A stretch of DNA of 64,000 nucleotides from Chlamydiia bacterium (GCA_963804085.1 CAWDOQ010000017.1:64001-128000), one strand, 5' to 3'; shown: positions 15,870 through 52,529, numbered from the stretch's first letter. The notes: generated by a model from the letters alone, not told the origin. Program-made: numbers and translations.

Positions 15870-16036
15870 CCCCCAGTGGACGAAGTGGACAGGCGCAGAT
15901 TTGTGGACTAAAGTGGACGAGGTGGACGGGGATCTTTTCCGACTTTAAGGTTTTATAGTTTATTAGACCTCTTGCGGCCTGTCCACTTCGTCCACTAAGG
16001 TCCACAACGTCCACTTCGTCCAGTGTCCACAGGGCC
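15870..16036. repeat. GTGGAC/GTCCAC inverted tandem-unit element A
   Basis: Five GTGGAC units then about six GTCCAC units; shares GGGGATCT..CCGACT core with 40360 and 52378 copies. Confidence 0.85.
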
Positions 16037-39600: not shown

Positions 39601-40380
39601 ATGTTTATCGATTCTCATGCTCATCTTACCTCTTCAGAGATCCTTCCGGACGTAAAAGAGGTGCTCGCGCGTGCGCAAGCAGCAAACGTCACCAAGATCA
39701 TCAACATCTGCACCGATGAGCTGACTTTAGAGAAGGGGCTTGAGCTGAGCGAGCAGTATGATTGGGTGTATAATACGGCAGCCACAACACCGCACGATGT
39801 GGAAAAGGAGGGAGAGAGCTTCTTTCCTATTGTCGAGAAGTGCGCCAAAGAAAAAAAGCTGGTTGCGATCGGCGAGACCGGCTTAGATTACCATTACGAG
39901 CACTCCCCCAAAAAAATGCAGCAGAAGTTTCTAGAGCGCTACTTGCAGCTTGCGCTTGATTGCAACCTTCCGGTTGTAATCCACTGCCGAGACGCTTTTG
40001 CTGACCTTTTTAGCATTGCAGATGCCACATACAAAAAAGAGGCGCTGCTCCTGCACTGTTTTACCGGAACACTCGAGGAGGCAAAAGAGGCGTTAAAAAG
40101 AGGCTGGAGTATCTCCTTGAGCGGCATCGTCACATTCAAGAAGTCGGAGAGCTTGCGCGAAGTGGCCCGCTACCTTCCACTAGATCGCATTCTCATCGAA
40201 ACAGACGCGCCCTATCTTGCCCCGCACAGCCAGCGCGGCAAGAAAAACGAACCCGCCTTCCTTCCAGAAACCGCTACCCTCATCGCCTCCCTCCGCAATA
40301 TCCCTCTCCCTGCTGTGGCTGAAGCCACCACCCGCAATACTGCTCGCTTTTTTTCTTTAAGTGGACAGAAGACCCCTTAG
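39601..40380 (+). CDS. tatD: TatD-family deoxyribonuclease
   Basis: DSHAHL, AIGETGLDY, IHCRDA, HCF, ETDAPYL. Confidence 0.93.
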   Translation: MFIDSHAHLTSSEILPDVKEVLARAQAANVTKIINICTDELTLEKGLELSEQYDWVYNTAATTPHDVEKEGESFFPIVEKCAKEKKLVAIGETGLDYHYEHSPKKMQQKFLERYLQLALDCNLPVVIHCRDAFADLFSIADATYKKEALLLHCFTGTLEEAKEALKRGWSISLSGIVTFKKSESLREVARYLPLDRILIETDAPYLAPHSQRGKKNEPAFLPETATLIASLRNIPLPAVAEATTRNTARFFSLSGQKTP

Positions 40381-40538
40381 TGGACGAGGTGGACAGAGTG
40401 GACAAAAGATTTGTGGACGAAGTGGACGGGGATCTCCTCCGACTCTTCTTCTTGGCGCTGTCCACTTAGTCCACATCGTCCACCAAGTCCACTAAAGTCC
40501 ACCCTCTTCGCGCCTGTCCACTTTGTCCGTTGGGGCCC
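40361..40538. repeat. GTGGAC/GTCCAC inverted tandem-unit element D
   Basis: Near reverse-complement of 52378-52529; overlaps the tatD stop. Confidence 0.85.
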
Positions 40539-40699
40539 TCTTTCTTAATTCATTTGCGTCTCCGCGACCCTGCGTCTTTCCCCTGAAAATTTCTAGGTTT
40601 TGTGACATGGGGGTAGCCTTGTTGTAGCAATCCTTCTTTCCCAATTATTTTATTGGACAGGCTCTACTCCCTTCCACTCAAGATCGTCCTTTAATCCAA

Positions 40700-40835
40700 T
40701 TTGCGTGTCAGTTAAGAAAAGCAAGCTTTCCCCTACGTGTTCACCAGCTGTGCTGGGACGACAATCTATTGTACTTACACTGACAGATCAGTTTGCGTTG
40801 CGGGGTAATCCACCACTAAGACGTCGATCTTTTGC
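40700..40835 (-). ncRNA. Putative IS110 bridge/seek RNA (target- and donor-binding loops)
   Basis: Hand-folded stem-loops whose internal loops match the target halves (CGTCTT, TTTGCGTT) and the donor end (TTTCCCCT). Confidence 0.7.
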
Positions 40836-40883
40836 AAATGTTTTAATTTCTCTCCCTTGATCGGACTATTGGTTGTTCTTTTT

Positions 40884-42113
40884 TTAGGCTATCTTCTTAG
40901 TGACCTGTACCTGGTATCCCAATTCTTCTAGCCGCTTGGCATGATATTTGGCTTTTCGCTCTGGCTCTAGCTTGTCTAGAAAATCAACGCCTATTTCGTG
41001 GAACGGGATATTATCCTTAAGCATGTGGAAACACACGACGAGAGTTTTGCGCCCGATGGCTATAATAGATCTCTGTTTTCCTCTCCGGAGTGCTAGAGCG
41101 CGATACTTAGCTCCTAAGTAAGTGTTTTTTGTACGCGATACTGCCCATGCGACCTGGGTCATTGTTACCTTCAGGTGCCTGTTGCCCTTTCTGATACGCG
41201 AGGATTTGATCTTCCCCGCGCTTTGGTTATTTCCTGGACATAATCCTGCCCAGGCCGAAAGGTGGGCGGCACTTCTAAACTGACTCATGTCGACTCCTAA
41301 TTCAGCTATTAAGGAGGCTGCGGCTAGGTCTTTTACACCAGGAATTGTTTTTAAAAGTTCTACCTGCGCCTGATAGGGGATCAATTGTTTTTGAATCTGT
41401 TTGTCAATCTGCTCAATAATAGCTTCAATGGCTGTGATATGATCCATCATCATCCGTAATATCTTGCGGTCTTCTTCTGCAAGGGTGCCTTTTAGAGCCT
41501 TTTCAATTTCCAGCCTAGGCGCTTGGCACTTCCCGTGAACATAGTCCATTAGTACTTCCATTCTCGTTTCTCCTGCAACAAGCTTGCAGATCATACCCCA
41601 TGCTGTAACACCGAAAACATCTGAAAATACAGAGGAAAGCTTGATGTTGGCGTTCTCTAGCATTTTAATGATCCGATTTTTAGCGCTCGAAAGGTCTCTG
41701 GTTAGCGTTTGTCTATACCTAACAACCTCTCTTAATCGGACGATCTCTCTCGGTGGAATAAAACTTTTGCTAAGTAGCCCACATTTCAAAAGCTTGCATA
41801 ACCATTCACTATCTTTAACATCGGTCTTTCTTCCGGGGACATTTTTCACATGTTGCGCATTCACCAAAACAACATCAAAATCGCCTTCAAATACATTAAA
41901 AATCGGCTTCCAGTAAATTCCTGTACTCTCGACGGCAACATGGTGGATATCAAGCGATTTTAACCAGTTTGCCAGTTCCTGAATGTCTTGTGTAAAAGTG
42001 AGGAATGTTTTGATTGTCTTGCGCTTTTGAGTTCCATTGCCTATCATTACGCACGCAGTTATGGAATCTCTATGTACATCTAATCCGCAGCATCTTTCGA
42101 ATACTTCTTCCAT
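40884..42113 (-). CDS. IS110-family recombinase/transposase
   Basis: GLDVH, VESTGIYW, KTDVKD (DEDD RuvC), TIPGV, AWAGLCP..NQSAGK catalytic Ser. Confidence 0.97.
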   Translation of the reverse strand: MEEVFERCCGLDVHRDSITACVMIGNGTQKRKTIKTFLTFTQDIQELANWLKSLDIHHVAVESTGIYWKPIFNVFEGDFDVVLVNAQHVKNVPGRKTDVKDSEWLCKLLKCGLLSKSFIPPREIVRLREVVRYRQTLTRDLSSAKNRIIKMLENANIKLSSVFSDVFGVTAWGMICKLVAGETRMEVLMDYVHGKCQAPRLEIEKALKGTLAEEDRKILRMMMDHITAIEAIIEQIDKQIQKQLIPYQAQVELLKTIPGVKDLAAASLIAELGVDMSQFRSAAHLSAWAGLCPGNNQSAGKIKSSRIRKGNRHLKVTMTQVAWAVSRTKNTYLGAKYRALALRRGKQRSIIAIGRKTLVVCFHMLKDNIPFHEIGVDFLDKLEPERKAKYHAKRLEELGYQVQVTKKIA

Positions 42114-42365
42114 GGCTCATATCTCCTATATTTAAGATTGTAGGGTTGTCGAAAGACAACACCACGTAAAGAGTATGAGTCATGGGTTTTTTTTAAACCG
42201 AGACTAAATTTTCATCGATTATTGTGAGCCCAGAGCTCATCGGGGTTTGCGTTAATCTTCAAGAAAAACGCAAAGACGCAGGGTCGCGGAGACGCAATAA
42301 AAATTTTTTAGCATAATAAATATGGTGTTTCCATTTTCAGATATTAATGCTATAATTTTTGCTCT

Positions 42366-43304
42366 ATGACACAAGCAATAGGTTTAAATCCTACAATTAA
42401 TACTTTACCTCCGGCACAAGAAAAGCCCTGCTTGGATGCGCTTTTCGAGCGCATTCAAGCGATCTGGAATGCGATTTGCGCCTGGATCTCTTCTCTAGCT
42501 GAGCGTCTTTTTCCGCCAGAAGTGCTTAAACAGCTGACTATAGCAGATAGCTCGCCTGACTCTTTTCGTTTGGTGATGCGCTATCTCTACCCGGAAGAGG
42601 TGGCTCGATGCGAACCGGTCTGTAAATCTTGGAAGGCGAACATCATCGAAAAGGTATGGGAGATGCAATGCCAGCAAGAAGGAGTCGAGCTGGAAGAAAA
42701 TTATAAGTGCAAAGCGGGGCAGTACAAAGAGGCGTTTAAAACCCCCGAGCCAATCCGAGCCTTTGGAGCGACAGAGTGGAAACAGTATTTTGGAGATCCA
42801 GGCGTTGCCCCGCGCCTTCCCGTCAGCATCTACCGCACCTTTAAAAAGTTAGAAGTGACACACACTCTTACTCTCATCCCCGCAACGGTAAATGGGAAGC
42901 CGCTTACCTTAAACACCTTTGCTTCATTTACACCCGTGCGGACGATGGAGTTGCGCATGGTGCCAGGTATTCGAAAAACATTAGGGGATGAGCCTGTAGA
43001 GAAATCTCTTTGGGTCTGGTTGCAAAAAGATTTTGTGCCAGAGACTGGAGGAAAGTCGCAGGAAGAAGCAGAGAAGAGTTATCGGCTTGGAAAAACGCTT
43101 TGGATCGTTGTCAGCATCTTTGCTCATTACACCCGTTGGGATCAGCGTCCCTTAGACTCGGATGACTTCATCGCTATGATGCAAGAGAAGAATCCTGAAA
43201 GCGGTGCGCCTGCAGCTGTTTCTTGTTCTGATGATGGTGTATTGGTATTCTTTGCCACGAAAAACCATGCCGATACACGGGTGGCTAATGCGTTTCCCGC
43301 ATAA
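42366..43304 (+). CDS. F-box-containing candidate effector
   Basis: PDSFRLVMRYLYPEEVARCEPVCKSWK F-box; amphipathic N-terminal helix. Confidence 0.75.
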   Translation: MTQAIGLNPTINTLPPAQEKPCLDALFERIQAIWNAICAWISSLAERLFPPEVLKQLTIADSSPDSFRLVMRYLYPEEVARCEPVCKSWKANIIEKVWEMQCQQEGVELEENYKCKAGQYKEAFKTPEPIRAFGATEWKQYFGDPGVAPRLPVSIYRTFKKLEVTHTLTLIPATVNGKPLTLNTFASFTPVRTMELRMVPGIRKTLGDEPVEKSLWVWLQKDFVPETGGKSQEEAEKSYRLGKTLWIVVSIFAHYTRWDQRPLDSDDFIAMMQEKNPESGAPAAVSCSDDGVLVFFATKNHADTRVANAFPA

Positions 43305-52377: not shown

Positions 52378-52529
52378 CCCCAGTGGACTTGCGCGAAGAA
52401 GGTGGATTTTAGTGGACGAGGTGGACTAAGTGGACTTTGTGGACAGCGCCAAGAAGAAGAGCCGGAAGAGATCCCCGTCCACCTCGTCCACCAATCTTTT
52501 GTCCACTCTGTCCACTTTGTCCACTGGGG
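52378..52529. repeat. GTGGAC/GTCCAC inverted tandem-unit element E
   Basis: CCCCAGTGGAC...GTCCACTGGGG termini; fills the gap between convergent genes. Confidence 0.88.

Follow-up and report, generated by a model that had tools for sequence, protein, structure and literature searches.

The window analysed here, a stretch of 64,000 nucleotides of DNA from a Chlamydiia bacterium, contains on its minus strand an intact IS110-family insertion sequence, which is flanked by AAA on either side and lies inside one arm of a perfect 31-bp palindromic repeat (Table 1). The recombinase gene leaves non-coding ends of 304 nt downstream and 132 nt upstream, and a predicted bridge RNA (seekRNA) gene starts on the same strand 44 nt after the recombinase stop codon. 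One full copy of the element was found in the source assembly (G000, a draft). An earlier note, made from the sequence alone, had read the downstream end as encoding a guide RNA and had placed the element in a chlamydia. This host assignment agrees with the neighbouring TatD gene, the named relatives of which are Chlamydiota, Chlamydiales and Rhabdochlamydiaceae MAGs at 62-65% identity, and we therefore take the host to be an environmental chlamydia.

Table 1. Positions of the element, its recombinase, the predicted RNA and the target repeat in the window. Sequences are given in recombinase orientation.
Feature	Position	Strand	Remarks
IS110-family insertion sequence	40580..42245	-	1666 bp plus one AAA core copy
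Recombinase gene, 409 aa, intact	40884..42113	-	Pfam, NCBIfam and IS621 match
Bridge/seekRNA gene, predicted, 143 nt	40698..40840	-	covariance model R1, covariation, MFE fold
Helix P0	40834-40839/40699-40704	-	closing stem AUUUGC/GCAAAU
Helix P1	40825-40830/40785-40790	-	
Helix P2	40810-40815/40801-40805	-	
Helix P3a	40780-40784/40707-40711	-	
Helix P3b	40774-40777/40713-40716	-	
Helix P4	40752-40756/40744-40748	-	
Target loop, 5' side, ACGUCUUAG	40816..40824	-	right-flank covariation
Target loop, 3' side, CAACGCAAAC	40791..40800	-	left-flank covariation
Donor loop, 5' side, UACAAUAGAUUGUCGUC	40757..40773	-	conserved ACAA-N4-UUGU motif; contains UAGAUU
Donor loop, 3' side, AGGGGAAA	40727..40734	-	right-end covariation
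Element left end	starts CCCCGATGAGC at 42245	-	
Element right end	finishes TTTTCAGGGG at 40580	-	
Left-end hairpin TGAGC-tctgg-GCTCA, then CACAAT	42225..42239	-	compensatory changes in homologs
Core AAA (TTT on plus strand), left flank/left end junction	42246..42248	-	read from sequence
Core AAA, right end/right flank junction	40577..40579	-	read from sequence
Uninterrupted palindrome arm (42267-42297) and loop (42254-42266)	42254..42297	-	empty site rebuilt
Interrupted palindrome arm, distal part; right flank GACGCAGGGTCGCGGAGACGCAA	40554..40576	-	

Recombinase and element boundaries

The recombinase matched the Pfam families DEDD_Tnp_IS110 (PF01548, 3.7e-27) and Transposase_20 (PF02371, 1.5e-23), scored 277.6 bits with the NCBIfam model NF033542, 'IS110 family RNA-guided transposase' (cut-off 140), and was related to the IS621 transposase 8wt6 at an E-value of 1.4e-16. 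In an alignment of 38 homologs D12 was found to be nearly invariant, and E62, D98, D101 and S298 were invariant. When aligned to IS621, E62, D98 and D101 face identical residues, and the QSAG of the query, containing S298, faces ESGS. The catalytic residues of IS621 are given as D11/E60/D102/D105/S241 in the published structural work (PMC11208158). We assign the conserved D/E/S residues to these putative catalytic positions by alignment, the numbering of the chain and that of the paper being different. The protein is accordingly described here as a predicted recombinase with a DEDD (RuvC-like) domain and a Tnp domain with the catalytic serine.

The boundaries of the element were set by alignment with homologs and agree with end motifs that are found family-wide: left ends have C-N-C-N-C-ATG followed by a hairpin and CACAA, and right ends have TTT[TA]CAGNNN. 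On the plus strand the junctions read ...CTGCGTC-TTT/CCCCTGAAAA...CATCGGGG/TTT-GCGTTAATC, with the slashes marking the element. The core is identical at both junctions and nothing beyond AAA is duplicated: removal of the element together with one AAA gave a perfect inverted repeat of 31 bp with a 13-nt loop, so that the empty site with a single AAA is a perfect palindrome. The left-end hairpin had compensatory variants in two homologs (TGAAC/GTTCA in L041 and TGGGC/GCCCA in L042). The two ends of the window copy share just CCCC/GGGG (4 bp), and comparison of left with right ends in the homologs gave no consistent inverted repeat.

Homologs and covariance models

Relatives of the recombinase were abundant, with 7842 of the 8000 scored proteins at E ≤ 1e-30. 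The best 120 of them were 65-100% identical to the query, nearly all on contigs of 1.4-2.5 kb. A scan of genome contigs with the single protein yielded no relative, whereas an alignment-based scan succeeded, and the DNA of 160 loci was collected from metagenome and genome contigs by a search with the 38-sequence alignment.

The covariance model R1 was built from six close homolog sequences and a hand-drawn structure, and was searched against the window and 98 loci. It gave 74 matches at E ≤ 1 (71 at E ≤ 0.001) in these 99 sources, and the RNA of the window itself scored 171 bits. All the matches were on the recombinase strand; 73 of the 74 followed the ORF at a distance of up to about 60 nt, and one (L107) preceded it. 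A second model, R2, was built on the 74 sequences and detected 31 further matches at E ≤ 0.01 in 100 sources, 86 of which were new and 14 of which were earlier sources without a match.

Structure and conservation of the RNA

The predicted RNA has a closing stem from which two arms extend, and each arm contains a large internal loop and an inner hairpin. The strings on which the earlier note had based its hand-made fold were all present on the minus strand, both for the stems (AGAUC 40826-40830 with GAUCU 40785-40789, and GUCAGU 40779-40784 with ACUGAC 40707-40712) and for the loops (CGUCUU 40818-40823, AACGCAAA 40792-40799, AGGGGAAA 40727-40734 and UAGAUU 40763-40768). Minimum free energy folding of the 143 nt alone returned the same two stems and in addition the closing stem. 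As the folding energy was not unusual in comparison to shuffled sequence (z was -0.67 with the 143 nt and +0.22 with the entire 304-nt end), the RNA is supported by covariation and not by thermodynamics.

In alignment A5 the six helices were paired in 90.4% of 1829 cells, and 28 of the 31 pairs varied on both sides, although these counts are biased towards the structure because A5 was fitted to the R1 model. None of 500 shuffles reached the observed values, a count that overstates the significance since the related sequences are not independent, and partners slid out of register paired at 26-50% (maximum 49.8%). Helices P0, P3a and P4 had at least four pair types per position. Two positions were G-U in 63 and 66 of the 68 distinct rows; such near-invariant G-U pairs exist on the recombinase strand only, which argues for a structure of RNA rather than of DNA. 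In the closest homologs the RNA block was 88-92% identical over 143-171 nt, while the non-coding sequence flanking it could barely be aligned until the last ~20 bases of the element, indicating that the RNA is better conserved than its surroundings.

A scan for a sigma-70-like promoter or a terminator beside the RNA found none. With Rfam 15, cmscan of 40300-42500 at E ≤ 10 gave chance-level matches alone, and none of these was over the RNA.

Guide relations of the target loop

The relations between guides and DNA were counted over unique combinations, comparing cognate with non-cognate pairs. For this purpose left ends were placed with a motif that is independent of the guides (5 bases, ATG, hairpin, CACAA), and right ends with TTT[TA]C and 5 bases, then AA. 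The three bases 5' of the left ends placed in this way were A in 48/51, 51/51 and 50/51 unique elements.

In the window, the 3' strand of the target loop contains AACGCAAA, which reads as the left target followed by the core (8/8) and would thus pair with the bottom strand. On the 5' side, CGUCUU would pair with top-strand AAGACG, which consists of the core and the right target, and the final G of this side would pair with the C just 5' of AAA (6 contiguous matches and the terminal G). The two sides of the target loop are therefore predicted to address opposite strands of the two target halves, overlapping on AA.

The earlier note had proposed both relations from this one copy, and both were recovered among the homologs. 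The 3' target guide covaried with the left flank: all five variable bases agreed in 27 of 46 cognate pairs as compared to 10 of 2042 non-cognate pairs, and at least four of the five in 39/46 versus 87/2042. Mutual information between RNA positions 43-46 and positions -7 to -4 of the left flank was 1.37-1.46 bits of 1.8-2.0. The 5' target guide was complementary to the right flank in a less strict way. Its reverse complement had a run of at least 6 with the right flank in 14/56 cognate and 30/2974 non-cognate pairs, and a run of at least 5 in 26/56 and 177/2974, respectively; the guide was loose, with a run of at most 4, in 30 of the 56 cognate pairs. RNA position 21 shared 0.64 bits, in the complementary sense, with the first right-flank base after the core (right-flank position 3).

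Individual loci illustrate how the loop follows the site. In L037 the loop is AUCGCAAA and the left flank is TCATCGC-AAA, so that an A-to-U change in the RNA tracks the change from AACGC to ATCGC in the DNA. L038 has a wholly different target loop (UUUGAAUU, AUAGGAAA), with GGATAGG-AAA as left flank and AAATTCAAG as right flank. For some elements, e.g. L077, L085 and L041, just one side of the site agrees with the guides. The loci L076 and L077 are two copies in one genome record, and L085 can be set beside L072 and L082; in these sets RNAs that are identical or nearly so were found with sites matching on one side only. Such one-sided sites may represent tolerated mismatches, or possibly an exchange of flanks by recombination between copies.

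The donor loop and the left end

In the window, the 3' strand of the donor loop, AGGGGAAA, reads as the right element end followed by the core (8/8) and would pair with the bottom strand. The donor guide that the earlier note had recognized here covaried with the right end. At least five of the last six element bases agreed in 24/26 cognate versus 187/646 non-cognate pairs, and all six in 16/26 versus 36/646, and ten different end hexamers were matched exactly. Mutual information between RNA positions 108-111 and the last four element bases was approximately equal to the entropy. The donor loop is AGAGGAAA in L037, where the element ends in CAGAGG, and AGAAGAAA in L041, where it ends in CAGAAG.

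Donor guide and right end differed at one base in L122, L124, L081, L120, L090, L087, L045 and L046. These natural mismatches sit furthest from the core, as for instance in guide CAGGGG with end CTGGGG.

Both guides that have the same sense as the DNA terminate in AAA, and the 5' target guide, which is complementary, ends with UU. From this the common core is read as AA(A), or TT(T) on the plus strand.

The other side of the donor loop behaved differently from what the earlier note had suggested. UAGAUU, taken there as a partial 5' donor guide, was without covariation with the left element end and spans the variable middle of the ACAA-N4-UUGU motif. A mutual-information scan of the RNA columns against the first six left-end bases revealed no one-to-one relation, only a diffuse signal at the level of lineages. 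Pairing between ACAA and UUGU is possible in 87% of cells, but both are almost invariant and one compensatory change was seen. The conserved left-end motif may be read by the protein or via very few base pairs.

Three other ways of reading a left-end guide, tried by hand, failed in the clade of the window. A register with AUU as complement of the core was rejected. The UGUU register fitted AACA, but only in a sub-clade whose left end starts with CA, to which the window does not belong. Pairing of AUUGU with the left-end CACAAT box was ruled out, as elements with CACAAA have AAUGU or AGUGU.

Handshake bases

The earlier note had also described dinucleotides placed like handshake guides, and these are at best weakly supported. 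According to the published description of IS621, handshake bases pair with the non-cognate DNA, and cognate pairing blocks strand exchange (PMC11208158). The last base of the 5' target guide was Watson-Crick to the cognate target base 5' of AAA in 31/48 combinations, a value that none of 2000 shuffles reached. Pairing with the donor base, as expected of a handshake base, was not clear (23/48; 264/2000 shuffles as high). The donor-guide base after AAA was equal to the right-flank base after AAA in 15/35 (76/2000 shuffles as high), a weak sign in favour of a handshake. The target-guide base after AAA was equal to the first left-end base in 41/41, but 40 of these are C:C and the comparison is almost uninformative.

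Alternative roles for the conserved block

Two other roles of the 143-nt block were weighed against these data. It could act as DNA, with sites inside the element where the recombinase binds or with extra copies of the ends, in which case the matches would be DNA repeats; the donor match does in fact repeat the right end, in direct orientation, ~150 bp further in. This is very improbable, because the helices are kept via compensatory changes and the G-U pairs would be A-C on the other strand. In addition, the loop bases that match the target differ from one insertion site to the next among unrelated targets, and a single loop appears to address both strands from its two sides, which is the published RNA logic and has no explanation as a DNA repeat.

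The structured RNA could also have another function, for instance stabilising the recombinase mRNA at its 3' end or regulating it, with the protein choosing the target, as the RNA directly follows the ORF and no promoter of its own was detected. We give this hardly any credence either: it leaves unexplained why the loop bases track flanks and ends across ~50 elements, and in relatives the same RNA is upstream of the ORF with the guide relations kept.

The comparative evidence instead bears out the central proposal of the earlier note, an IS110 recombinase with a bispecific guide RNA in the 304-nt downstream end, with target and donor loops and a TT(T)/AAA core. We consider it very likely that 40580-42245 is an IS110-family insertion sequence whose 409-aa DEDD/serine recombinase works with a bridge RNA (seekRNA) of ~140 nt encoded downstream of its gene.

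Target repeat and mobility

The natural target of the element is, as judged from sequence, a REP-like palindromic repeat of the source genome, of which empty copies were found elsewhere in that genome. The 12-mer set by the guides had 8 exact occurrences, and 49 with at most one mismatch, in the 2.13-Mb assembly, where ~0.25 exact occurrences are expected from composition. Nearly all the occurrences fall within copies of the palindromic repeat, among them the second arm of the palindrome that the element occupies.

The REP-like repeat family (GCGTCTnnGCGnCnnnGCGTCTTTGCGTT, loop, reverse complement) gave 14 matches at up to 6 mismatches to a 26-mer. Its copies in the source assembly, including those at C2:336082 and C17:17108, supply insertion sites for the element.

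Arrays of another kind were also observed in the window. At 40361-40427/40460-40521, 5-6 GTGGAC hexamers face 5-6 GTCCAC hexamers across a spacer of ~33 nt, and similar GTGGAC/GTCCAC arrays, forming long imperfect palindromes, are at 15876-16030 and 52412-52524. There were 51 hexamer clusters in the genome (at least 4 hexamers, spacing up to 25 nt), many of those listed being in facing pairs. The GTGGAC hexamer was not over-represented genome-wide (803 versus ~1042 expected).

Contigs of four soil-metagenome DNA runs covered the element in pieces, and neither a circle junction nor an empty site was found in them; a look-up of RNA runs containing the element returned none. In two of these runs (X2 and X4, at window positions 40572 and 42253) single low-depth contigs leave the element ends into sequence unlike the window. 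They diverge from the window after 8-12 target bases, and one alternative flank of 22 nt was absent from the source assembly at up to 2 mismatches. As a hint, these flanks are possibly a second insertion site in a related strain.

A distant relative, L129, was found on a contig of 1681 bp that begins with the right end and AA joined to the left end, and that finishes with the right end and AA joined to the first left-end bases. This junction could be a circle, a tandem copy or an assembly wrap-around.

The RNA and the element may be real while this copy is an immobile relic, that is a single fixed insertion that was acquired horizontally. Its one copy in the source assembly is in line with this, as is its rarity, with the RNA model found in 2 of 151 sampled genomes of the phylum and a close protein relative in 1 of 400 others. 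Draft assemblies, however, often collapse IS copies. The ORF is moreover intact with its catalytic residues, the agreement of the three guides with their own flanks and end is still perfect, and eight exact target sites remain in the genome. The contigs of other runs with element ends beside different sequence also speak against a relic, albeit weakly, being single contigs of low depth. We therefore regard a relic as possible but doubtful.

An active element would, by analogy with IS621 and the IS1111 seekRNAs, excise as a circle that joins right end, AAA and left end. The RNA would then bring the target AACGC-AAA-GACGC and the circle junction together within a tetramer of the recombinase. Strand exchange would take place within the common AAA, leading to insertion without duplication and with AAA on both sides.

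Distribution and position of the RNA

Within the phylum, the RNA model matched 2 of the 151 sampled genomes, the source assembly included. The protein search matched 19 of 401 genomes at E ≤ 1e-20, mostly with distant IS110 relatives, and a close copy (86% protein identity) was present in 1 of 400 other genomes, belonging to the same order. MAGs often lack repeats, so that this rarity is to be read as 'not found' and not as 'absent'. In this sense the element is rare in the phylum; it was probably acquired horizontally.

Outside the phylum, relatives of the recombinase at 41-49% protein identity were found in elements on plasmids of Bacillus thuringiensis, Alicyclobacillus, Streptomyces and Cupriavidus, annotated as 'IS110 family transposase'. 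According to covariance model R2 they carry the same RNA family (E 1e-9 to 5e-5), and they have the same three guide relations, to the left flank, the right flank and the right end. They differ from the window in having the RNA upstream of the gene, inside the left end, and AG as core.

The RNA was upstream of the gene in 14 loci altogether, which were L107 (found with R1) and 13 of the 31 R2 matches. These upstream loci (L198-L201, L104, L105, L107, L135, L136, L139, L140, L154, L163 and L180) have ~30-49% protein identity and an AG core, not AAA, and their guide relations to flanks and right end were unchanged in the 12 of the 14 loci that were checked.

As the RNA is upstream in these relatives and downstream in the window, the RNA module appears to have switched ends within one lineage. 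This fits the translocation of guide RNAs between ends that was proposed by Durrant et al., 2024 (PMC11208160), and the remark of Siddiquee et al., 2024, that some IS110-type groups have a 3' non-coding region (PMC11187229).

Discussion

The guided recombination mechanism, and downstream RNAs in many IS110-family elements, were published in 2024 (PMC11208160, PMC11208158, PMC11187229). The chlamydial element is of this known bridge/seekRNA type and leaves the known mechanism unchanged.

With IS621, as described in the published work, it shares a DEDD/Ser recombinase and a single RNA with a target-binding and a donor-binding internal loop (PMC11208160, PMC11208158). As in IS621, each loop would address both DNA strands and include the core common to target and donor, which in the chlamydial element applies to the right-end half of the donor. 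Recognition of the donor is asymmetric in both, with one long side, and for the other donor side of IS621 a short and discontiguous pairing has been reported (PMC11208160).

The differences from IS621 are several. The RNA is downstream of the gene in the chlamydial element and upstream in IS621. The guide that reads like the left target lies 3' within its loop, in contrast to a 5' placement in IS621. The core is AAA/AA instead of CT, and the protein has 409 aa as compared to 328 for the solved IS621 chain. A left-end guide was not found in the RNA of the element. Furthermore, the base that comes next after UU-A, which pairs with the core, is matched to the cognate target, and such a pairing is described as blocking exchange in IS621 (PMC11208158).

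The element thus departs from the layout of the IS110 subgroup, to which IS621 and ISEc21 conform with an upstream RNA and the bottom-strand guide on the 5' side. In relatives with 41-49% identity the RNA is placed upstream, but the reversed guide order is retained.

In other respects the element resembles the IS1111 seekRNA systems (ISEc11, ISPa11, ISKpn4) as they have been described. In both, the transposase gene precedes the RNA, the part complementary to the top strand comes 5' of that for the bottom strand, and the target is a repeated palindrome (PMC11187229). IS1111 transposases are given as 330-350 aa (PMC11187229) and their subterminal inverted repeats as 7-17 bp (PMC11208160); by these published descriptions the chlamydial element differs in having a 409-aa protein and in being without 7-17-bp subterminal inverted repeats. 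Its layout is mixed: the protein is long and IS110-like, and the place of the RNA and the order of its guides follow IS1111.

ISPpu9 of Pseudomonas putida is, by its description, likewise an IS110-family element located in REP sequences, and a small-RNA gene downstream of the transposase gene has been reported for five of its copies (PMC12288879). The element of the window is set apart from it, by description, through its host, its target sequence and its RNA.

Taking the left end and the distribution together, we put forward, tentatively, that the RNA carries three guides while the left end is read by the recombinase as a motif, and that the RNA module moved between ends with its guide-DNA relations unchanged. 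If true, this would represent a natural, half-programmable donor and a modular relocation of the guide gene.

To our knowledge, few genetic tools are available for environmental chlamydiae, and the present element places a complete, predicted RNA-guided recombinase in one of them. Its mixed layout blurs the scheme of two subgroups. The guide code of this IS110 lineage was readable from one genome copy, and the ~50 natural elements with matched sets of RNA, target and donor and an AAA core could help in establishing guide-design rules beyond IS621.
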